Below are positions 9,090-51,949 of a stretch of 64,000 bases of DNA, one piece after another. Under the pieces are notes generated by a model. It was not told where the DNA came from and did not search any database. It saw only the letters and a list, made by a program, of their open reading frames with translations. The stretch is from positions 60,750-124,749 of the forward strand of contig JBDTMI010000004.1 of NCBI GenBank assembly GCA_039934355.1. The letters are read 5' to 3'. Made by a program: the position numbers and the translations under genes. Each line of letters begins with the position of its first letter. Within the stretch, counting starts at the first letter, position 1. The DNA comes from Gemmatimonadales bacterium (GTDB taxonomy: Bacteria > Gemmatimonadota > Gemmatimonadetes > Gemmatimonadales > GWC2-71-9).

Positions 9090-9261
9090 GGCAGAGCTCC
9101 CGAAGGGGTGGCCGTGCGGTGTGGTCTAGCGACTGAGCAGTGCGGGATGACGCGGCGCCGCGGGGGCGAGCGCATGGCACGCCGGGAAAGACAAAGGGAG
9201 TGTCCCAGGCACCCCGAAGCGACACTGGACATCGCTTAGCGCTGCTACCTCTCGGTCCTGA

Positions 9262-9374
9262 CGCGGTTCGCGCGCCGGCGACCTTCGGACCTGGGACGAG
9301 GGGAGTATAGCCCGCCCGCCCGGCCCGGAATAGGGGCAGCCACCGACCTCGGAGGGGCCGGTGCGCGCTCCGTC
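9262..9374 (+). ncRNA. ffs: Structured RNA candidate, possibly small SRP RNA (4.5S/ffs)
   Basis: A 14-bp closing helix (9265-9278 with 9358-9371; 12 pairs including one G-U, plus 2 mismatches) encloses GGCCCGGAAUAGGGGCAGCC, which resembles the SRP helix-8 motif GGUCCGGAAGGAAGCAGCC. It lies immediately upstream of dnaX, a position conserved for ffs in several phyla. The apical loop and arm lengths are atypical, so this is tentative. Confidence 0.4.
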
Positions 9375-27761: not shown

Positions 27762-28478
27762 CTACATGCTCTTTACTTCGAGGGCCACGACGTCATCCAC
27801 CCGGACCGTTTCGTCGGTATGGAACGGCTCGCCATAACGGGTGCGGATCAGAGAGCCGTAGTGCGCGTTCTGCACCTGCACGAGGGAGTAGAGGTCCTGG
27901 CCAGTCGGGAAGATCTCGCCGGCGCTGTCTGCCCCGTCGAACTGGCTCGCATAGCAGCGGATCGCCTGCATCTTCCGCTCGAACTGGGCGCTGATGTCCA
28001 CCACGAAGGTTGGCTTGACCGGATCTTCGCGGTAGGCCAGTGCATAGAGGATCTTCGAGGGTCGGTGCGGTGCCCCAGGTGCATCGTAGCGCGCCAGCCC
28101 AGCCAGAAAGCAGGCGTCGCGGCCCAACTCCGACGCCAGCCGATGATCCGGGTGGCGGCCGACGGGGTAGGGGAGGATCACGACGCTCGGCGCGAAGTGC
28201 CGAATGTGCTCGACCAGGATGCGTCGGGTTGCGTCGGTATTCTGAATCCCCGCGTCCGGAAGCCCGGCGTTCCGGCGTTCCGTCACGCCGAGAATCGCTG
28301 CGGCGCTGGTCGCCTCGGCACCGCGCAGTTCGGCGCTGCCACGTGTGCCCATTTCTCCCGCGGTCAAGTCCAGAATGCCGGTGCGATGGCCCTGATCACG
28401 CGCTCGCAGCAGCGTGCCGCCGCAGGTGAGTTCGATGTCGTCGCGGTGTGCGGCAATGGCGAGCAGGTCGACAGGCAT
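27762..28478 (-). CDS. bshB1: PIG-L/LmbE family deacetylase, BshB1-like (bacillithiol biosynthesis deacetylase)
   Basis: 238 aa. LLAIAAHRDDIELTCGGTL...GILDLTAGEMGTRG pattern matches BshB1 as remembered. Zn-binding H/D residues present. Confidence 0.7.
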   Translation of the reverse strand: MPVDLLAIAAHRDDIELTCGGTLLRARDQGHRTGILDLTAGEMGTRGSAELRGAEATSAAAILGVTERRNAGLPDAGIQNTDATRRILVEHIRHFAPSVVILPYPVGRHPDHRLASELGRDACFLAGLARYDAPGAPHRPSKILYALAYREDPVKPTFVVDISAQFERKMQAIRCYASQFDGADSAGEIFPTGQDLYSLVQVQNAHYGSLIRTRYGEPFHTDETVRVDDVVALEVKSM

Positions 28479-28509
28479 GGGGAAGGGGAAGAGGGAAAGG
28501 GGAAAGGGG
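28479..28509. repeat. Polypurine G-run tract (GGGG-AA-GGGG-AAGA-GGG-AAA-GGGG-AAA-GGGG), G-quadruplex-capable
   Basis: Read directly. Five G3-4 runs separated by 2-4 nt A-rich loops on the + strand, abutting the bshB1 start codon (28476-28478, minus strand). Confidence 0.8.
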
Positions 28510-28582
28510 AACGGCGAACCGGGAAGAATCTACACCGGCTTCCGTCACCCCGATCCCCGTTGGGCGACCCTCCACTATGGTC

Positions 28583-43227: not shown

Positions 43228-43689
43228 ATGAATCCTGAGCCCATCCCGGTGAGTTTGCTGGCGGTCCACGACCTCCTCAGGGAAACCCTTGCCACTGCAA
43301 GGGATAACAACGGCCCGTTCCAATACGGAGTCGCGGTCTTTCCGCGCACCGGACGGTTCGGGGCTCCGGTATTCGGGATCGCGACCAGTGGCGGTGAGTC
43401 CACAGTGCTGACCTACCGGATGCTACAGTCGCTGGTGGAGCTTCCGGTGTACCTGTCCGGCCGGGTTCCCGCCACCATCCGGGAAGGTCTCAGTTACGGA
43501 CCGCCGCGGGTGATTCCCGTCGCCCTGCTCGACCAGCCGGTTCTGCGGGTGGGTTTCACCTGCTGCATCGGTGCGAGCCGGGACGATCTCGATCGGACCC
43601 AGCCGCTGGAAACCAGCGTCTTCGCCGGCGACCTCACGGCACCGCTGATCCTGCTGCTCGACGCTCGTCCCGACGGCTGGCCGCAGTAA
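43228..43689 (+). CDS. Hypothetical protein (orphan ORF, lower GC3 than its neighbours)
   Basis: 153 aa ORF with an ATG start. Followed by a hairpin plus T5 tract. Noticeably more A/T-ending codons than flanking genes. No family recognised. Confidence 0.5.
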   Translation: MNPEPIPVSLLAVHDLLRETLATARDNNGPFQYGVAVFPRTGRFGAPVFGIATSGGESTVLTYRMLQSLVELPVYLSGRVPATIREGLSYGPPRVIPVALLDQPVLRVGFTCCIGASRDDLDRTQPLETSVFAGDLTAPLILLLDARPDGWPQ

Positions 43690-43818: not shown

Positions 43819-45372
43819 ATGCTCGCCTGTGTTCACGCCGCCACTCTGTTCGGGATCGACGCTTGCCCGGTCGCCGTTGAAGTCGACCTGAGCCCGGGCC
43901 TGCCCGGTTTCGCCACGGTCGGGCTGGCACAGGGTGCCGTGAAGGAGAGTCGAGAGCGGGTGACTGCGGCGTTGTCGAACAGCGGATTTCAGCTTCCGCT
44001 CAAGCGCATCACGGTGAACCTGGCCCCGGCGGACCTCCGGAAGGAGGGTTCCGGCTTTGACCTGCCGATCGCCGTCGCGCTGCTGGAGGCGAGTGGGCAG
44101 TTGCCGGAGGGAGCGGCGGCGGGACTGCTGGTGCTGGGGGAGCTCGGCCTCGAGGGAGACCTGCGTCCGGTGCGTGGCGCCCTGTCGGTCGCGCTCCGCG
44201 CCCGGGCTGAGGGGCTACGTGGCGTCATCGTCCCGGCAGCCAACGCGAATGAGGCCGCGGTCGTCGCCGGCCTCGAGGTCATCGGCGCGCGCTCGCTGCG
44301 GGATGTGGCGAGGCACCTCTCGGGGGAGTCGCCCCTTCCGGTCACACCCCACGATCCCGCGGCCTTCGCGGCGCTGCCGGTGCCGGATGCGGTGGATTTC
44401 GCCGACGTCCGCGGGCAACCGGCGGCCAAACGCGCGCTCGAAGTCGCGGCGGCGGGAGGTCACAATCTCCTCCTCATCGGGCCCCCGGGCGCGGGGAAGA
44501 CGATGCTCGCCCGGCGCCTGCCGACCATTCTGCCCGCACTGTCGGTTGAGGAAGCGATCGACACGACCCGCATCCACAGCGTCGCCGGCCTGCTCCCCGC
44601 CGGCCGAGCCCTGCTCACCGCCCGCCCCTTCCGAGCGCCGCACCATACCATCAGCGATGCCGGTCTCATTGGGGGCGGCGCGACGCCGCGGCCGGGGGAG
44701 GTGAGCCTGGCCCATGGCGGGGTGCTTTTTCTTGATGAGTTGCCGGAATTCCGTCGCAACGTGCTCGAGGTCCTGCGCCAGCCGCTCGAGGATGGGGTCG
44801 TCACCCTGAGCCGCGCCGCGATGAGCCTTACCTACCCGGCGCAGTTCACACTCATCGCCGCGATGAATCCCTGTCCCTGCGGCTTCGCGGGCGACGCACG
44901 GCGTTCCTGTACCTGCGAGCCTGCCCTGGTCGAGCGCTACCTGAGCCGGCTGTCGGGACCGCTGCTCGACCGGATCGACATCCAGCTCCGGGTGCCGGCG
45001 GTCCTCGCGACCGAGTTGACCGGGGACCAGCTCGAAGAGCCGAGTCAGGCGATCCGGCTGCGGGTCGAGGGGGCCCGCGCCCGGCAGCGGCGTCGCTTCC
45101 CGCCCGGCACCGGGGTCGCGAGCAATGCCTGCCTCGCCCCGCGCGAGCTGCGTCGCTACTGCCGCCCCGATCCGGCCGCCGAAGAGTTGTTGCGCGCCGC
45201 ACTGACCCGGCTGGGTCTTTCGGCCCGGGCCTACCACCGGGTTCTCAAGGTGGCACGGACGATCGCGGATCTGGCGGGAGAGGAGACGGTGGGCACGGCG
45301 CACATCAGTGAGGCCATTCAGTACCGGACCCTGGACCGCGCGGCGTTCGGGCGGGCGCGGGCGGCGGGGTAG
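43819..45372 (+). CDS. comM: YifB/ComM family Mg-chelatase-like AAA+ ATPase
   Basis: 517 aa. N-terminal Lon-like domain (GIDACPVAVEVDLSPGLPGFATVGL...ESRERV). Walker A GPPGAGKT, LFLDELPEF Walker B, C-terminal SARAYHRVLKVARTIADL. Confidence 0.95.
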   Translation: MLACVHAATLFGIDACPVAVEVDLSPGLPGFATVGLAQGAVKESRERVTAALSNSGFQLPLKRITVNLAPADLRKEGSGFDLPIAVALLEASGQLPEGAAAGLLVLGELGLEGDLRPVRGALSVALRARAEGLRGVIVPAANANEAAVVAGLEVIGARSLRDVARHLSGESPLPVTPHDPAAFAALPVPDAVDFADVRGQPAAKRALEVAAAGGHNLLLIGPPGAGKTMLARRLPTILPALSVEEAIDTTRIHSVAGLLPAGRALLTARPFRAPHHTISDAGLIGGGATPRPGEVSLAHGGVLFLDELPEFRRNVLEVLRQPLEDGVVTLSRAAMSLTYPAQFTLIAAMNPCPCGFAGDARRSCTCEPALVERYLSRLSGPLLDRIDIQLRVPAVLATELTGDQLEEPSQAIRLRVEGARARQRRRFPPGTGVASNACLAPRELRRYCRPDPAAEELLRAALTRLGLSARAYHRVLKVARTIADLAGEETVGTAHISEAIQYRTLDRAAFGRARAAG

Positions 45373-45509
45373 GGGCGAAGCTATGAGCCGGGTCGGGAGA
45401 TCAAGGCGGTTGCTGCTCCCTCACCCGCTTCGTCCCGGTGCCCACCGAGTCGGAGATGGCATCCAGATCATCACCCAGTCACGACCCGGCTGCAACTGCT
45501 TTCGGAGCG

Positions 45510-45656
45510 ATTCACACGGCGAATGCCGACCTGCACAGCGCTAACGGCGGTGTGCACCGTGCTAACAGCGGTCCGCACATCGCTAACGGCCGCCTGCACA
45601 CTGCTAACGGCAGTCTTCACAGCACTCCCCGCGCCTTCCACACCCCTTTCCTCTGG
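45510..45656. repeat. Tandem array of about 7 x 21-bp direct repeats (core NNGCAC-NNN-GCTAAC(G/A)GC-NNN)
   Basis: Read directly. Four well-conserved units lie at 45531-45614, flanked by degenerate units that retain the CAC. The period is exactly 21 bp. Confidence 0.9.
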
Positions 45657-45847
45657 CTCGTCACCGGCGCCTAACACTCCGCATCATCTGGCACGCCGCT
45701 CGCGTTGCCTCCCCTCCGCCAGGCTCGGTGTGGGCCGGTCCTGGTCGTCGCGCCGCCGCTCCCCGAAGCGCTCGGCACCGTTGGTCCCCCGTGGTTCTCG
45801 GACCGCTTATACGGTGTCGTCGTATGCAATGCTATCTTCGTATCGGT

Positions 45848-46387
45848 CTCCACGCCGGGCCGATGGATTACACGCCGGGCATCTTCGACATTCTGAGGCA
45901 GCGGGCCGGCGGACCCCCCGCCCGGCCGCAAGATTCACGGGTCCGCGCCGCGCTGGCCAAGCAGCTCACACTGTATGTCGTGCTCGACTCACCACTGCAG
46001 ATGGCGGCGGACTTGCCCGAAAACGACGAGGGGCAGCCGGTGTTCCAGTTCATCCGCGACGTTGCGGTGGATTGGGACACGACCCGCGTGCTCGACGGCC
46101 GGATCGGCAACTACGTGGCGGTCGCACGCCGGAAGCGCGGGGGCCAGTCCTGGTTCGTGGGTGCCATCACGGATGGGCAGGGCCGCACCCTCGACGCCCC
46201 GCTTTCGTTCCTGACGCCGGGCCGGAAGTATGTCGCAGAGATCTACGCCGACGGCCCGAAGGCCAACTGGCTGGACAACCCATCGCCCGTCACCATCACC
46301 CGACGGCCGGTGACCGCCGCGACTCGGCTGCGCGTCGTGCTGGCGCCGGGAGGCGGGCAGGCCATCCGGATCCACCCCGCGAGATGA
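45848..46387 (+). pseudogene. Glycoside hydrolase family 97 remnant (C-terminal ~175 residues only; N-terminal and catalytic regions missing)
   Basis: HAGPMDYTPG..., QLTLYVVLDSPLQMAADLPEN, FIRDVAVDWDTTRVLDGRIGNYVAVARRKRGGQSWFVGAITD and LRVVLAPGGGQAIRI match the C-terminal part of SusB-like GH97 enzymes (about 650-740 aa) as remembered. Similarity stops abruptly upstream of about 45848. Confidence 0.7.
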
Positions 46388-46399
46388 TTCTGGCTGCGC

Positions 46400-48340
46400 A
46401 TGGATGAACTGAGGGCGCTCCGCGCGCTCGCCAGGACGATGGGGGTCCACACCCGTTACACCGACGGGTTGGGCAAACGCGTCATTGTGGCGCCTGAGAC
46501 GCTGGTGCGGGTCTGCGACGCGCTGGGCGCTCCCGTTGCGCGACCGGCCGATGCCGCAGACGCGCGGCGTGCCTACAGCGCGGGCCGGAGGCGGGGGCAG
46601 CTTCCACCGGTTGCTCTCGCCTGGGATGGGAGCCTCCCACCGCTCGCCGTGCCCGCCTCCGGCCCGGTCGACGGACGGCTTCAGCTCGCTGACGGCGAGC
46701 TCGTCATACTCGAGCGCGTTGGAGCGGAGCTGCAGCTCAATCGCCGTCTGCCCGCCGGGTACCACCGCCTGACGGTCGAGGCCCATGGACGGGCTCAGAC
46801 GTGCACGGTCATCGCTGCCCCGGTACATGCGTGGCGCCGGCCCGGCGCGCATCGGAGTTGGGGAGTCGGGACCCACCTCGCGGCTCTCCGCTCAGCGCGC
46901 AGCCGCTCCCTGGGCGACCTCCGGGATCTCCAGTTGCTTTGTCGCTGGGTGCGTCAGCGCGGTGGGGACCTGGTGACCGCCCTGCCGCTCCTTCCCACTT
47001 TCAATACAGAGTGGCCGGAACCGAGTCCGTACTCCCCGGTGAGCCGGCTCTTCTGGTCCGAGTTGATCCTCGATCTGGGCGAGCACCATCACCCGTCGCC
47101 TGGACCCGCGATGCTGGACGTGACCGCAGCGGATGCCGAGGTCCGCCTGGCGCTGGCCGGGTATCCGGTCCCGGATGCATCGCTGCTGGACGAGGAGCTG
47201 CGTCGTTACGCACGGTTCCGCGGCGCGCAGGCCCGGCTCGGCAGGAACTGGCGGGATTGGCCCTCGAAGGCGCGCGCCGGACTGCTCAGAGCCGACGACG
47301 TGGACGCCGAGGTTGAGCGATTCCACCTCGTGGCCCAGACGATGGCGCGGGGGCAGCTGAACGACCTCCGGGCGCACCTGGAGCACGATGGAATGCGCCT
47401 GGGCCTGGACCTCGCGGTGGGCGTGCATCCGGATGGATACGACCCATGGTCGCGTCAGGGACTGTTCGGCGAAGGGATGTCGGTCGGCGCCCCACCCGAC
47501 CAGGGCTTTCCGAGCGGGCAGGACTGGGGCTTCTCGCCGGTGCTGCCGGAAGCGTCTCGCCGCGAGGGCCACCGGTACCTGGCGGCGTCCATCGCCCACC
47601 AGGCCGGTCTTGCCGGTGTGCTTCGGGTCGACCACGTCATGGCCTGGAGCCGTCTCTACTGGATCCCGCACGGCCTCGGGCTGCATGAGGGCACGTACGT
47701 CTCGTATCCCACCGACGAGCTCTTTGCCATCCTGTCGCTGGAGTCGAATCTCCACCGGTGCGAAGTCGTGGGGGAGAACTTGGGCACGGTGCCTCCCGAG
47801 ATCTTCGAGGCGCTGCCACGTCACCGGATCTGGGGGATGTATCTCGCGATGTTCCAGGCGTCCGCCGGACCTAACGTCGCCCCCCCAACGGCCGCGGATA
47901 TGGCACTCGTGGGCACCCACGACACCCCGACCGTTGCGGGTTGGCTCGCCGGCAATGACATCGCCGACCGGGTGCGTTATGGCCTCCTGGCCCCGCCGGC
48001 GGTCCACGCCGTCGCCGAAGAACGGTTGAGGGCCACGGGGTGGCTCGCAGCCCAACTGGGCGCCAGTGTGGGTGACCCTCGCGACTTTCTGAGTCGATTG
48101 CTGGAATGGCTCGGTCAGTCCGACAGCCCGCTCGTGGTGGCCTGGCTCGAGGACCTGTGGCTCGAACCCGTTGCGGTCAACCTTCCCGGGACGCCGTCGT
48201 CGGTGCGTCCCAACTGGCAGCGTCCGATGCGACTGCTGCTGGATGAAATCTTTGCCAACCCCGATGTGGACGAGTTGCTTCGTCGCCTCCAGCGGGCTCG
48301 AACTTCCAACGTGAGCGACCTCCCGCCCGTCACCCCTTGA
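46400..48340 (+). CDS. malQ: 4-alpha-glucanotransferase (amylomaltase, GH77)
   Basis: 646 aa. N-terminal extension then the GH77 core: GDLRDLQLL..., LPLLPT, SPYSPVSRLFW, LGLDLAVGVHPDGYDPW, LRVDHVMAW, VVGENLGTVPPEI, VGTHDTPT. Confidence 0.9.
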   Translation: MDELRALRALARTMGVHTRYTDGLGKRVIVAPETLVRVCDALGAPVARPADAADARRAYSAGRRRGQLPPVALAWDGSLPPLAVPASGPVDGRLQLADGELVILERVGAELQLNRRLPAGYHRLTVEAHGRAQTCTVIAAPVHAWRRPGAHRSWGVGTHLAALRSARSRSLGDLRDLQLLCRWVRQRGGDLVTALPLLPTFNTEWPEPSPYSPVSRLFWSELILDLGEHHHPSPGPAMLDVTAADAEVRLALAGYPVPDASLLDEELRRYARFRGAQARLGRNWRDWPSKARAGLLRADDVDAEVERFHLVAQTMARGQLNDLRAHLEHDGMRLGLDLAVGVHPDGYDPWSRQGLFGEGMSVGAPPDQGFPSGQDWGFSPVLPEASRREGHRYLAASIAHQAGLAGVLRVDHVMAWSRLYWIPHGLGLHEGTYVSYPTDELFAILSLESNLHRCEVVGENLGTVPPEIFEALPRHRIWGMYLAMFQASAGPNVAPPTAADMALVGTHDTPTVAGWLAGNDIADRVRYGLLAPPAVHAVAEERLRATGWLAAQLGASVGDPRDFLSRLLEWLGQSDSPLVVAWLEDLWLEPVAVNLPGTPSSVRPNWQRPMRLLLDEIFANPDVDELLRRLQRARTSNVSDLPPVTP

Positions 48341-49001
48341 GGTACCGGTCGATCATGGGATGACACGCTGCAACCGCTCGAAGAAGTTGTCGAGGGATTC
48401 CTGCTCGGCGTCCAGCCGGCCCTCCGCTCGCCACTTCTCGATGAGGGTCGGCGGCAGATTCACCGGCTCGTCCCGCTCCGTCAGTACCATCCGGGAGCGT
48501 GGGGACGAGCTTGCAATCGACGGTGAAGCGTTCGACCTCGTACCACTCGGCGAACCGGGATCGCCTCTGGTTGGCGAGCAGATCCTTCCACGCCCAGAAA
48601 CTGGTTCCGGTATGGTTCCACGAGTAGTCGATGATGATGTGCATCCCGCGCCGGTGGACTTCGCGTACCAGGGCAAGGAAGAGGCTGTCCGCGGCGGTCC
48701 ACTTCCACGTGGATGGGTCCGCGGGGCTCTCGGCGGCGATGGTCGCTTCGTCGCGGCGCGGATCGGGGCCGAAGTTGCGATCCGGCGAGTAGCCCGCGAT
48801 GTCGTGCGCGGTCGGATCGTTGGTGCTGTCGCCGTTGCGGAATCGTTCGACGAAGATCTGGTACCAGATGACGTCTGCCGACCAGGCGGGGACCGCGAGA
48901 GTCGGGGTGGCGTCGGGCCGGGCTACTGGCGCTTCCCGTGCGCATCCCGATGCGAGACCCAGTGCGAGCACCATCGCGCCTCGGCGGGCAACGTTGGTCA
49001 T
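48330..49001 (-). pseudogene. GH13 alpha-amylase-family lipoprotein remnant (internal gap, frame change and missing C-terminal two-thirds)
   Basis: Lipobox MTNVARRGAMVLALGLASGC. VIWYQIFVERFRNGDSTNDP and HRRGMHIIIDYSWNHTG (GH13 region I) are present, but the segment expected between them is absent. Homology ends after FAEWYEVERF. A second frame (48353..48676) ends in a different coding-like tail. Confidence 0.6.
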
Positions 49002-49063
49002 TACGGCCTCCGTTGGATCGGAAAGGTCAGGGCGTTGTCGGGCCGTGAGGCGCCAGCAGGCGC

Positions 49064-49678
49064 TCACGCAAGAATCCGGTCGATCAGTGCCAGCTCTTCG
49101 GCTGCAAACTCAAGATTCCGTGTGGCGCCGACGCAGTCCTCGATCTGGCTGACGCGGCTCGCGCCGATCAGGGCGCTGGTGACAATCGGATGGCGCAGCA
49201 CCCACGCCAGCGCCATCTGCGCCAGGGTCTGCCCGCGCGATTGGGCGACATCATCAGGTCGGTGGGAATAGAGGATGTCAACGTATGGCAGTCCCAGCCG
49301 TTTCAGCGATTGATCGAGTGAGGCCAGGAGGCTCTTCCTCGAGCCCCTTTCACCGTAAGGCCCGGGCCACATGGCGTACCCCGCCTTGGTGGTCACGATC
49401 ATCTCGTCGCGCCACCGTCCGAGGTCTTCACCCAGGATGCGGCCGAAGGATTCCTCCGCCGATCCTTCGGGCGGACCGTAATTGTTGGCCAGGTCGAAAT
49501 GGGTGATGCCGAGGTCGAAGGCCCGGCAGACCATTGCGCGGGCGTTGCAGTGGGAATCCTGCGCCCCAAAGTTGTGCCAGTGGCCCAGCGAGATCCGCGG
49601 GAGTGCGACGCCCGAATGACCGCACCGGCGAAAAAAGTCTGGCCGGTTGTACCGGGCTGCATCGGGCGCGTGCGTCAT
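49064..49678 (-). pseudogene. Aldo/keto reductase (YghZ/Tas-like) with a large in-frame internal deletion
   Basis: 204 aa from the ATG at 49678. Collinear with E. coli YghZ as remembered up to ...VDILYSHRPDD, then jumps directly to AQSRGQTLAQMALAWVL...LIGASR...LALIDRIL, the C-terminal helices. About 140 residues of the TIM barrel are missing around 49245-49255. Confidence 0.7.
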
Positions 49679-49774
49679 TCCTGTGTCACTCCCTCGGCTG
49701 AGGGGACAACCTCGGCTTGGACGAGGCCGAATGTGCAGCAACCGGTCACAGCGCCGCAAGGGAGTTGGAGACCG

Positions 49775-50584
49775 CTACCGTGGAGTCCAGGTCGGCTGAC
49801 CGGTGAACAATCCGTGCACCACGCCGACCTGATACGCGATAAGTATCCCGAACGCCAGGCTGATGACACCGGCGGAGAGCCGGAGCGCCGCGCCAATCCG
49901 CGTGGAGCGGGTCCCGGCGTAGACGAACGGTACGGCGATGGCCGCGGTGATCACCATCATCCCGGCGATGGTACCGAGTCCGAACACCAGCAGGTAGAAC
50001 ACTCCCCAGCGTGGCTCGGCGATCGTGGCGAGGACGAGCAGGGCCACCGCCGCGGAGCCGGCGAGGCCGTGCACGACTCCGACCACGAGCGGGCGCACCC
50101 CGCCATAGAGCGTAACCCCGACGAGGTGCCGGTCCAGCCAGCCCACCGGAGTCCGGTCCGGGTCATGGGGGTGACGCTCGGGATCGTGCCCGTGGGCATG
50201 GTCATGGATATAGTCGCCGTGACTGTGCGGATGGGCGTGCGTTGACAGGTGGTCGGACGGCTTCCTGCCACGGTACTCCGCGATCAGCCGCCAGAGCCCG
50301 GTCAGGTTCATCAGACCGAGTCCAATCAGCATCACCCCCACGAAGAACTCCATGGAAAGCCCGACTCGGGGCGGGATGACCCAATGGCCAAGGATGATGC
50401 CACCCCCCACGACGAGAATGGTGAGGGTGTGACCCAGACCCCAGAGGGCCCCGATCCACGCGGCACTTCCGGCCCGGCGATGTCGAGACACGATGGTGGT
50501 GATCGCGATGACATGATCCGGATCGGTCGCGTGGCGCATGCCCAGGAAGAATCCCAGCGCGAGGATGGCGAAGGTATCGGTCAT
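49775..50584 (-). CDS. Nickel/cobalt transporter, NicO/RcnA-like, with histidine-rich loop
   Basis: 269 aa from the ATG at 50584. HX4DH-type signature GMRHATDPDHV in TM2. Central loop HLSTHAHPHSHGDYIHDHAHGHDPERHPHDPD. About 6 TM helices. Confidence 0.7.
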   Translation of the reverse strand: MTDTFAILALGFFLGMRHATDPDHVIAITTIVSRHRRAGSAAWIGALWGLGHTLTILVVGGGIILGHWVIPPRVGLSMEFFVGVMLIGLGLMNLTGLWRLIAEYRGRKPSDHLSTHAHPHSHGDYIHDHAHGHDPERHPHDPDRTPVGWLDRHLVGVTLYGGVRPLVVGVVHGLAGSAAVALLVLATIAEPRWGVFYLLVFGLGTIAGMMVITAAIAVPFVYAGTRSTRIGAALRLSAGVISLAFGILIAYQVGVVHGLFTGQPTWTPR

Positions 50585-50600
50585 CGTGTTGCCCTCGTCG

Positions 50601-51173
50601 TCAACCGCGGTCCGAGAACTCGAATGGCTCGCCACGTCCATCGCCGCTCCGGCGACCGCCCATGCGCGGGCGACGCTCAGACGATGACCCTTCCTGTTCT
50701 CGGGTGTCGCGCGGACCCCGGCGTCGCTCGACAAACGATTCGATCGCCTCGACTCCCAGGAGGACGGCAAGCGTTACCAGTGTAATCACAACCGCGGCGG
50801 CGAAGTGCCCGATGCCGATGAGGCTGCCGATCGCGGCCAGTACCCAGATGACCGCCGCAGTCGTGACACCCAGGAGGCGGCCCTCCCGGGTCAGGATCAC
50901 TCCCGCCCCGAGGAAACCAATGCCGGTGACGACCTGCCCAAGCACCCGGGTGGCATCGCTCCGATCAGGGGCGGTCGTCACGCCGAGGGCGACAAAGAGG
51001 GAGGTCCCCAGGCAGATCAGAATGCTGGTACGCACACCGGCGGCCTTGCCCCGAATCTGCCGTTCGAGGCCAATGGTGCCGCCGCAGAGGAGGGCAACGC
51101 CCAGATGGAACCAAAAGACGGGAGTCTCGGGCGAAAGGGAGTCAGGCGGCATGGTGAACGCCTCTCTTTCCAT
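50601..51173 (-). CDS. MgtC/SapB family membrane protein
   Basis: 190 aa. LLCGGTIGLERQIRGKAAGVRTSILICLG and VVTGIGFLGAGVIL motifs. Start ambiguous (51173 or 51152). Confidence 0.85.
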   Translation of the reverse strand: MEREAFTMPPDSLSPETPVFWFHLGVALLCGGTIGLERQIRGKAAGVRTSILICLGTSLFVALGVTTAPDRSDATRVLGQVVTGIGFLGAGVILTREGRLLGVTTAAVIWVLAAIGSLIGIGHFAAAVVITLVTLAVLLGVEAIESFVERRRGPRDTREQEGSSSERRPRMGGRRSGDGRGEPFEFSDRG

Positions 51174-51334
51174 GAGAGTGTGAATCGAGGGTCGGCCCCG
51201 AGCAAGATACGGTGTGTCGCATAGTGAGGCACACCGGGGGAGGTGGCCGCCTTCCGACCGCCGACCTCACCCCTACGCTGGCCGTGCCTGCCCTCTCAGC
51301 GTAACTTTCGAGCATCCAATTCCCTGAGCGCATA

Positions 51335-51949
51335 CTGTACCCAGTCGCCCGCACTCTACCCCTCGCGGGCCTTTTCCTGCTCGCATGTACTCCGCTCGGC
51401 GCATGGGTCTACGACGACCCGTCCTTCCAGCTCACCCGGGTAGAGGCGCGCCACCCCGGCGCCTCGGGGCTGGAAGCGGATTCGGTGAACCTGGTGTTCC
51501 TCGCCTGCAACCGGAACGACTACGACCTGCAGTTGCGGCGGGTCTCCGCCCGGCTCGCCGTCACCGGTCGCGCCGCGAGCCCGCTGGGCCGCTCGGACAA
51601 CTACACCCTGCCCACCCGCACCATGAGCGAAATCATGGTAACCGTCTCGCTGGCCGACTCGGCGATCGCCGCCGACCAGGAGCATCGTCGTTTCGAGCTG
51701 CTGGGCGAGACCACAGTGACCACGCCAGGTGGAGACCGGGTCGTGGCGTGGCAGCAGCGCGGGCAGGTGTGGAAGCGCGGCGACTCGCTCCACTGGGTCG
51801 GGGAGCAGGGCGTGGCCTGTCGGCCAGGGCTGTCACAGCTCCCCACCTATTTCGCACCGCTACCCAAGATCGGTCCACTGGTCAAGGAGCCGCTGCCAAG
51901 CATGATGAACCCTGACTCGAACCCGCCCACACGGCCTTCAAGACCCTGA
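51335..51949 (+). CDS. LEA_2 (LEA14/NDR1-HIN1-like) domain lipoprotein; start codon non-canonical or lost
   Basis: The frame is open from 51305. It encodes ..YPVARTLPLAGLFLLAC|TPLGAWVYDDPSFQLTRVEAR.. (lipobox LLAC) upstream of the first canonical start (GTG at 51485). The only start-like codons before the signal peptide are CTG 51335, ATA 51332 and ATC 51314. The body (NLVFLACNRNDYDLQLRRVSARLAVTGR...) resembles LEA_2. Confidence 0.55.
   Translation: MYPVARTLPLAGLFLLACTPLGAWVYDDPSFQLTRVEARHPGASGLEADSVNLVFLACNRNDYDLQLRRVSARLAVTGRAASPLGRSDNYTLPTRTMSEIMVTVSLADSAIAADQEHRRFELLGETTVTTPGGDRVVAWQQRGQVWKRGDSLHWVGEQGVACRPGLSQLPTYFAPLPKIGPLVKEPLPSMMNPDSNPPTRPSRP

Follow-up and report, generated by a model that had tools for sequence, protein, structure and literature searches.

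A tandem array of seven 21-bp units lies just downstream of comM in DNA from a Gemmatimonadales bacterium; the stretch analysed, here called the window, is 64,000 nucleotides long and has a GC content of 67%. The array is real and unique, looks non-coding, is absent from relatives and sits at a junction. Most probably it is a neutral and degenerate minisatellite within non-coding orphan DNA, which forms the left junction of a lineage-specific mosaic next to comM. Its origin by slippage and its neutrality are inferred. An earlier, sequence-only reading of this DNA had preferred a protein-binding array (iterons, a centromere or operators), with a periodic-histidine peptide and a neutral minisatellite as alternatives. 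The last of these is favoured because the array is absent from close relatives, and its non-coding character and random-like variation agree with that choice.

TRF placed a period-21 repeat at 45531-45623 and scored it at 102, with 72% matches and no indels over 4.4 copies. The runner-up in the 64 kb scored 56, and the 21-bp array is the strongest tandem repeat of the window. An 84-bp sliding comparison gave a self-match of 59/84 at lag 21, against a maximum of 46 anywhere in the window for the other lags from 12 to 39. The core units are identical to one another at 13-18 of the 21 positions (62-86%). The three outer units (45510, 45615 and 45636) matched the core consensus in register at 12, 14 and 11 of 21 positions, respectively, compared with a mean of 5.8 for random 21-mers of the window (P = 0.004, 0.00015 and 0.015). 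As the outer units are significant in register, a count of seven, made up of four good and three decayed units, is defensible; the edges of the array are more decayed than its centre. The seven units and the exact 21-bp period of the sequence-only reading were thus borne out, three of the units being degenerate, and its transcription of the letters was correct. The array is present in a single copy in the window. The coordinates of the array and its surroundings are collected in the table.

Table. Features of the array and its surroundings, in positions of the window.
Feature	Position	Strand	Basis or remark
comM/yifB, Mg-chelatase-like AAA ATPase, intact, 517 aa	43819..45372	+	Pfam; last conserved-backbone gene on the left
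Lineage-specific mosaic, ~5.9 kb, between comM and the LEA_2-like gene	45373..51330	.	Right edge approximate
Orphan non-coding spacer with the array, about 475 bp	45373..45847	.	From the comM stop to the GH97 breakpoint
Open frame of 78 codons, xHxANGx heptads	45438..45674	+	Judged not a gene
Open frame of 68 codons, TAVSxVQ heptads, coiled-coil-like	45471..45677	-	Judged not a gene
Partial unit CTGCA-ACTGCT, possibly an eighth, lacking 1 nt	45490..45500	.	Local alignment to unit 5; weak
Tandem array, seven in-register 21-bp units	45510..45656	.	TRF, lag-21 autocorrelation, flank-unit test
Core of four good units	45531-45614		Consensus CTGCACAGCGCTAACGGCGGT
Decayed in-register units	Starts at 45510, 45615, 45636
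GH97 C-terminal remnant, about 179 of ~670-690 residues	45848..46387	+	Pfam GH97_C, tblastn
malQ (4-alpha-glucanotransferase)	46400..48340	+	Pfam; part of transplanted starch-locus fragment
LEA_2-like lipoprotein gene, where the backbone resumes	51395..51856	+	Directly after comM in L092-L094

The nearest relatives of both comM and malQ are Gemmatimonadales MAGs. The same strain was found in four Logan assemblies, which probably sample one population, and the region 45360-45760 was 100% identical in all four. The edges of the mosaic were placed by blastn and tblastn mapping of the backbone against three related loci (L092-L094). In these, the backbone consists of efflux genes, a 1329-aa sensor kinase, a conserved 153-aa protein, comM, the LEA_2-like lipoprotein, a 182-aa protein, UPF0114, Sua5, ArfB and NadE. 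The order HK, 153-aa protein and comM is shared with L091-L094, and homology ends at or just before the comM stop. In the window, the backbone is interrupted directly after the comM stop at 45372, and the LEA_2-like gene beyond the mosaic is again recognizable in the relatives (tblastn 43.5% identity over 154 aa, E = 2e-36; blastn 85-92% over 40-52 bp). The mosaic contains, in order, the spacer with the array, the GH97 remnant (GH97'), malQ, a truncated alpha-amylase gene (minus strand), a short aldo-keto reductase (AKR) gene (minus strand, possibly truncated), NicO (minus strand) and MgtC (minus strand).

The earlier placement of the array between an intact comM and the breakpoint of a truncated GH97 gene was correct, and the suspected rearrangement was supported, as the array lies at a real junction in lineage-specific DNA adjoining comM. 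Searching with the full-length GH97 proteins of relatives (L087-L089, 669-693 aa), tblastn found 79-80% identity from residue ~497 onwards, which corresponds to position 45848. The remnant is called as a protein of 174 aa starting at 45863 in the Logan assemblies and of 187 aa starting at 45824 by NCBI. The intact starch locus of the relatives comprises GH2, GH97, malQ, an MFS transporter and an amylase, and the malQ that follows their full-length GH97 is 75-79% identical to the malQ of the window.

The spacer is C/T-rich on the plus strand, with a GC content that is mostly 57-64% and rises to 71-75% at 45650-45799. No significant blastn similarity of the spacer to the relatives, the rest of the window, plasmids or phages was found. 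A derivation from the 5' sequence of GH97 was considered and rejected for want of significant similarity; comparison of proteins did not corroborate the one 34-bp match to the 5' region of the L089 GH97 gene (E 0.001-0.02). The genes next to comM on its downstream side in L091 (encoding a 71-aa membrane protein and an SSF transporter) and in L092-L094 were rejected as sources on the same ground.

The comparison with related strains that the sequence-only reading had proposed was carried out, and the array was absent from three sister-lineage assemblies with comM proteins of 92-93% amino acid identity; by that reading's own terms, absence in close relatives would speak for a neutral minisatellite. 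One of them (L091) shows 83% nucleotide identity to the window over 2.3 kb, and the blastn homology stops at the comM stop codon. It is followed there by 88 bp and then, on the minus strand, by the genes for the 71-aa membrane protein and the sodium:solute symporter (SSF). The other two (L096 and L097) are different again downstream of comM. At least three different fillings are seen among close relatives. In more distant Gemmatimonadales, the array was not found. As the sister assemblies differ downstream of comM, its 3' flank is a variable junction in the clade, and the array lies in lineage-specific DNA. In this clade of Gemmatimonadales, the DNA immediately downstream of comM is a hotspot of recombination. 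With respect to copy number, the array is identical in the four assemblies (probably one population) and is missing as a whole in the sister lineages.

The blocks that the sequence-only reading had taken as conserved did not stand out from chance. Random placement of as many differences as each unit shows leads one to expect 11.8 invariant columns among the four core units; 13 were seen (P = 0.23), and the longest invariant run was likewise unexceptional (P = 0.21), so that both the number and the clustering of the invariant columns match the random expectation. Only the retention of CAC by every one of the seven units is slightly out of the ordinary (P about 0.02-0.06). The claimed lack of synonymous drift holds in the xHxANGx frame used by that reading; it does not hold in the CTxLTAV frame, where 5/10 codon changes are synonymous, or in the minus-strand TAVSxVQ frame, where 2/8 are. 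The proportion of synonymous changes is significant in none of the frames.

A weak 7-bp sub-period was also present within the unit. Matches at lags 7 and 14 reached 0.415 compared with 0.248 in column permutations that keep the 21-bp structure (P about 0.016-0.017). The sub-period is clearest in unit 5, which can be written as CTGCACA / CTGCTAA / CGGCAGT. The heptamers that make up the unit differ in sequence and have only GC at positions 3-4 in common. This sub-period points to an origin at the DNA level, by higher-order amplification of a short motif, rather than to a codon-level constraint.

Arrays of this calibre are not rare. About eight were found in the 0.91 Mb of bacterial loci collected, which corresponds to a base rate of roughly one per 100 kb. 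They include, in a Bacteroidales MAG (L034), an AT-rich intergenic array with 7/14/21-bp periods some 75 bp beyond the end of comM and, in the sensor kinase of L015, a 21-bp heptad repeat that does encode protein. A pattern scan of metagenomes yielded two arrays with similar units. One is on a human-gut contig (L085), with 5.4 copies of GCACAAGGCTAACAGCGGCGC downstream of apparent chromate-transporter genes; the other is on a metagenome contig (L086), with 2.5 copies of CTGCACACTGCTAACTGCTAC adjoining a 7/14-bp array. Because the pattern required two adjacent units and 21-bp satellites are very numerous, these matches are indistinguishable from chance; they show that arrays of this kind recur in intergenic DNA.

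The array resembles the bacterial intergenic minisatellites of the VNTR type in its head-to-tail units of more than 10 bp, its imperfect repeats with decayed edges, its lineage-specificity and its lack of associated genes. The tandem copies of a unit of at least 10 bp are significant, and their location is non-coding, as in these minisatellites. In the four assemblies, which are identical over the array and probably sample one population, no copy-number polymorphism was seen, and to that extent the array differs from them. With 14-38% divergence between its core units, the array is an old one that has probably stopped expanding.

Translation of the array was weighed both as a live micro-ORF and as a relic. 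The statement that all frames stay open across the array had to be narrowed to four of six, since one plus frame has TAA and one minus frame has TAG in every core unit. The 78-codon plus ORF and the 68-codon minus ORF are both open with GTG starts, and in the plus frame GC peaks at third codon positions (0.68-0.71); these features would fit a live gene for a periodic-histidine xHxANGx peptide of 78 aa or a TAVSxVQ peptide of 68 aa. Against this, the codon usage is not native. A log-likelihood ratio (LLR) trained on 15 confident genes of the window gave 0.43 +/- 0.17 for genuine 70-codon windows (5th percentile 0.18) and -0.48 +/- 0.38 for out-of-frame windows. The xHxANGx ORF scored -0.10, the TAVSxVQ ORF about 0 (0.00) and the CTxLTAV frame -0.31. 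The three main open frames together span -0.31 to +0.05, each below more than 98% of real in-frame windows, and the adjoining GH97 remnant is still native (0.41). The GC3 of the array frames is 0.62-0.71, compared with 0.80-0.84 in the flanking genes. No gene is called over the array in any of the four Logan assemblies, and the NCBI protein accessions MEO8634204 (comM) and MEO8634205 (GH97') are consecutive, so that no protein record lies between them. No convincing Shine-Dalgarno sequence was seen by eye upstream of any micro-ORF start, and the micro-ORFs are absent from the sister lineages.

Database searches did not provide a family for either peptide. Word-index protein searches with both micro-ORFs gave no match, the minus ORF having none at E <= 10. 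The array frames, including CTxLTAV, matched no Pfam or NCBIfam family above threshold; against PHROGs, there were sub-threshold matches only, including one to a tail-fibre family, and the CTxLTAV frame had no match in any of the three collections. A sub-threshold Pfam match of the minus ORF was Trypco1, at 17.6 bits against a cut-off of 24.6, and is of low complexity; its PDB matches were coiled coils, likewise sub-threshold and of low complexity. A full HMMER scan of the plus ORF returned 15 proteins (best E = 6e-9), heterogeneous and matching only inside their own heptad repeats. Judged by sequence, the set includes LINE-associated, Plasmodium-like and fish-like eukaryotic proteins together with bacterial coiled coils. 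Tracing the protein closest to unit 3 (P0158, GVHRVNS) led to a eukaryote-like contig, where it comes from a 21-bp satellite, GTACACAGGGTGAACAGCGGT. These proteins were rejected as homologues of the plus ORF, being unrelated heptad-repeat proteins, one of them a traced eukaryote-like satellite, and we read the matches as probable translated minisatellites and not as a protein family. An equation of the minus ORF with the 71-aa gene of L091, which has the same position and strand, was rejected as well; the shared position and strand are judged coincidental, as there is no sequence similarity. Of what would be expected of a heptad-repeat protein or micro-ORF, the open frame is present, and a coherent family of homologues, native codon usage and native GC3 are lacking. 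A live micro-ORF on either strand is therefore very unlikely, and the periodic-histidine peptide of the sequence-only reading finds no support.

The array could instead be the relic of a once-coding heptad-repeat, coiled-coil-like segment, brought in by the rearrangement and since decayed to a piece of a pseudogene. Its period is divisible by three, and the array leaves four of the six frames open; half of the codon differences in the CTxLTAV frame are synonymous; and the minus-strand TAVSxVQ units have constant hydrophobic and variable surface positions. The sub-threshold coiled-coil and repeat matches point the same way, the neighbouring genes are truncated remnants, and coding 21-bp heptad arrays do exist, as in the coiled coil of the L015 sensor kinase. 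However, neither the repeat nor the flanking ~330 bp has a homologue in any frame, and codon usage is non-native in every frame. The enrichment of differences at third positions (4/8 variable sites) is not significant, with a binomial P of about 0.26, calculated by hand and before correction for six frames, and a 7-bp sub-period is unexpected for codon-level repeats. On balance, a coding relic is an unlikely explanation.

The array could also be a platform for a DNA-binding protein. Its units might be operators through which GH97'-malQ is regulated, iterons or a centromere; or they might be the multi-site or arm-type end of a transposon or integrative element that entered beside comM, at the 3' flank, and has since decayed. 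Such a platform would account for the exact spacing of seven units at two helical turns with no indel and for the invariant CAC. It would also fit the position of the array at the left edge of a ~5.9-kb lineage-specific insertion adjoining comM, and a comM 3' flank that differs between close lineages as it would at an integration hotspot. The expected company of such a platform was not found. A PWM was built from the four core units and scanned on both strands. Neither orientation yielded a further copy in the 64 kb, the right edge of the insertion included (best score elsewhere 14.4; array units 25.8-31.1), and roughly 0.9 Mb of loci from relatives and elsewhere contained none except for unrelated minisatellites. 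The search for other copies that the sequence-only reading had suggested thus came back empty for the 64 kb and for the homologous regions of relatives. No Rep, ParA/B (parM/parR), integrase or transposase was present among the called genes within +/-10 kb, and the backbone is chromosomal housekeeping DNA, in synteny with the chromosomes of relatives. There are no att-like direct or inverted repeats flanking the inserted segment and no tRNA or tmRNA integration site. The plasmid and phage blastn searches gave no match, and a pattern scan of viral contigs gave 0 matches. The per-position conservation, as described above, is not above chance.

Among known systems, plasmid iterons and partition-site arrays resemble the array in having exact tandem repeats of ~20 bp, about 4-7 copies and a period of roughly two helical turns. 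Tandem repeats of 17-22 bp, as in plasmid iterons, are present here; an adjacent rep gene and DnaA boxes with an AT-rich region are absent, as are the adjacent parA/parB or parM/parR genes of a parS/parC-type centromere. The array is unlike these systems in its chromosomal-housekeeping context and in its lack of rep/par genes, a DnaA box, an AT-rich unwinding region and plasmid similarity. The idea of an oriC, raised by the resemblance of TnCACA to DnaA boxes, was rejected, as the window contains neither a consensus box (TTWTNCACA) nor a GC-skew switch. No AT-rich tract adjoins the array; the lowest GC of the spacer region, 57%, is at 45800-45899, about 150 bp beyond it. The ends of Tn7-, Mu- and Tn402-type transposons carry several transposase-binding sites of ~20-22 bp, and Tn7-like AbaR elements are known to target comM. 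The array, with its ~21-bp units clustered in tandem beside comM at the edge of an insert, is reminiscent of such ends; it differs from them in that no inverted copies occur at the other edge and no transposase genes or target-site duplication are present, and in that comM has stayed intact and the inserted DNA is a mosaic of pieces of metabolic genes. A binding platform, the preferred interpretation of the sequence-only reading, has a low probability. It is quite unlikely that the array is the surviving transposase or integrase arm-type end of a decayed element at the comM hotspot, or a member of a cross-phylum regulatory 21-bp family with the motif GCAC-N3-GCTAAC (L085, L086). These two readings stay alive because the copy search spans 64 kb, the comM flank is hypervariable and the register is perfectly kept.

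The array was also weighed as an RNA element, which could offer an RNA-binding protein several copies of its target or form a structure in the comM 3' UTR or malQ leader. A scan found no promoter-like or terminator-like site in the array region, and as no intrinsic terminator was detected between comM and GH97'-malQ, read-through transcription is plausible. The heptamer sub-structure would be in keeping with such an element, as would the similar 21-bp units in the two metagenome contigs. The cyanobacterial STRR heptamers are direct repeats of heptamers in intergenic DNA. For the intergenic TAACTGA heptamer repeats of Beggiatoaceae, Cyanobacteria and Bacteroidetes, a post-transcriptional function has been proposed (PMC4679880), which provides a precedent. 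The array is like these repeats in its 7-bp sub-period, and heptamer-based 7/14/21-bp intergenic arrays also occur in L034 and L086. It is unlike them in that its sub-period is weak, its three heptamers differ from one another and from TAACTGA, to which its sequence is unrelated, and it occupies one locus, with no family elsewhere in the 64 kb, where the known repeats have many per genome. Nor is it just upstream of a start codon, being more than 160 bp from either proposed start of GH97' (45824 by NCBI, 45863 in Logan). The excess of RNA folding over shuffled sequences was nil on either strand (z -0.82 and -0.40). Rfam gave nothing at the locus at a permissive setting and, at the gathering threshold, only an SRP RNA elsewhere in the window; the two metagenome matches are compatible with chance. 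An RNA-level element is thus extremely improbable.

A neutral minisatellite would have formed as follows. A 21-bp unit with weak internal 7-bp structure may have been amplified head-to-tail by replication slippage or unequal recombination. This amplification would have taken place inside the ~475-bp orphan non-coding stretch that forms the left junction of the ~5.9-kb mosaic of mostly truncated genes. The copies would then have gathered point mutations roughly at random, leaving the core 62-86% identical and the edges further decayed. The array would now have no demonstrable sequence-specific function and, at most, be passively transcribed with the 3' region of comM or the 5' region of GH97'-malQ. 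Several observations count against this account. The seven units are in exact 21-bp register with no indel and an invariant CAC, and the kept register and CAC could reflect weak constraint. The period is a multiple of three with four frames open, and no copy-number instability was seen in the four identical assemblies, which are probably one population. What probability the rival readings retain comes from the location at a hotspot, the unbroken register of the units, their shared CAC and a search that spans 64 kb of this genome.

The array matters little in itself, as an ordinary feature of a known kind. Its analysis removes a tempting false lead, namely an iteron or centromere array or a periodic-histidine peptide, and illustrates that a 21-bp minisatellite in a high-GC genome can mimic both a phased binding array and a heptad-repeat ORF. 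A mildly useful by-product is the hotspot downstream of comM, which is filled here by a mosaic of pieces from starch-utilisation genes, among them a surviving malQ.

Comparison of window positions 45373-51395 with the sister-lineage assemblies L091, L096 and L097 and the related genomes L092-L094 shows that, in this Gemmatimonadales clade, the interval directly following comM is hypervariable. The window carries a mosaic of ~5.9 kb at this position. A LEA_2-like gene directly follows comM in L092-L094, L091 has a membrane protein of 71 aa together with a sodium:solute symporter at this place, and L096 and L097 have yet other content. No integrase or transposase was seen in the comM-downstream interval. 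Upstream of comM, a 153-aa protein sits between a large sensor kinase and comM in all relatives examined. Clustering at 90% identity groups it with others in a set of 153 members, of which all the named ones are Gemmatimonadales/Gemmatimonadota MAGs. The gene after the LEA_2-like gene in the relatives is absent from the window; it encodes a 182-aa protein that contains LQxD/VSAVQAG-type internal repeats as well as a His-rich stretch (HHHHH). The short VSAVQ.G likeness of this protein to the TAVSxVQ heptads in the minus frame of the window's 21-bp array was not significant (E=0.12). The features are listed in the table.

Features in the window and in the compared loci
Feature	Location	Strand	Details
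Bacterial small SRP RNA	window 9200-9296	-	Rfam RF00169, 50.8 bits
G/A-rich heptamer repeat	window 28479-28525		GGGAAAG/GGGGAAG, about 5-6 copies
153-aa protein	window 43228-43689	+	directly upstream of comM; no Pfam match
GH97 remnant	window 45848-46387	+	C-terminal ~179 aa
Truncated GH13 alpha-amylase	window 48330-49067	-	
182-aa protein	L092 12965-13513		next after LEA_2-like gene
7/14/21-bp tandem array	L034 2394-2495		Bacteroidales MAG; AT-rich, TTGAGAT/TTAAGAT, about 14 heptamers
21-bp array	L085 5667-5780		metagenome contig; GCACAAGGCTAACAGCGGCGC x5.4
21-bp array	L086 3994-4141		metagenome contig; CTGCACACTGCTAACTGCTAC x2.5, beside about 12 heptamers ACTGCTC/ATTGCTC
Long 21-bp satellite	L095 3000-4900		eukaryote-like contig with NIDO-domain genes; GTACACAGGGTGAACAGCGGT
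21-bp tandem array	L015 10319-10436		Nitrospiria locus; EELQSQ-type heptads

The GH13 alpha-amylase fragment keeps the lipoprotein signal and the N-terminal region as far as the DYSWNHTG motif, with unrelated sequence thereafter. The fragment is convergent with malQ, the 3' end of which it overlaps by 11 bp, and full-length homologues are found in L087 and L089, two relatives with a full-length GH97. The adjoining aldo-keto reductase (204 aa) also looks short. The GH97 remnant, annotated by NCBI as a 187-aa protein, has native codon usage (log-likelihood ratio 0.41) and is still about 80% identical in aa sequence to its full-length relatives, so that either the truncation is recent or the remnant is still expressed along with malQ.

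The SRP RNA was the sole Rfam family above the gathering score in the window. The G/A-rich heptamer repeat adjoins the ATG of a minus-strand ORF (27762-28478), and so forms a polypyrimidine tract directly upstream of the start on the coding strand.

Tandem arrays of similar period were present in other loci. The L034 array lies roughly 75 bp 3' of the L034 comM stop; it is alike in position to the window's array, but not in sequence. The units of the L085 and L086 arrays resemble those of the window, the L086 unit matching window unit 5 exactly over its first 15 nt, and this likeness may reflect either chance or a shared repeat family. The significant HMMER matches to the window's plus-strand ORF (45438..45674) included a spurious translation of the L095 satellite (GVHRVNS repeats), an illustration of how protein databases come to contain translated satellites. 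The L015 array appears to be coding, apparently for a sensor-kinase coiled coil, and is a useful positive example of the appearance of a coding 21-bp heptad array.
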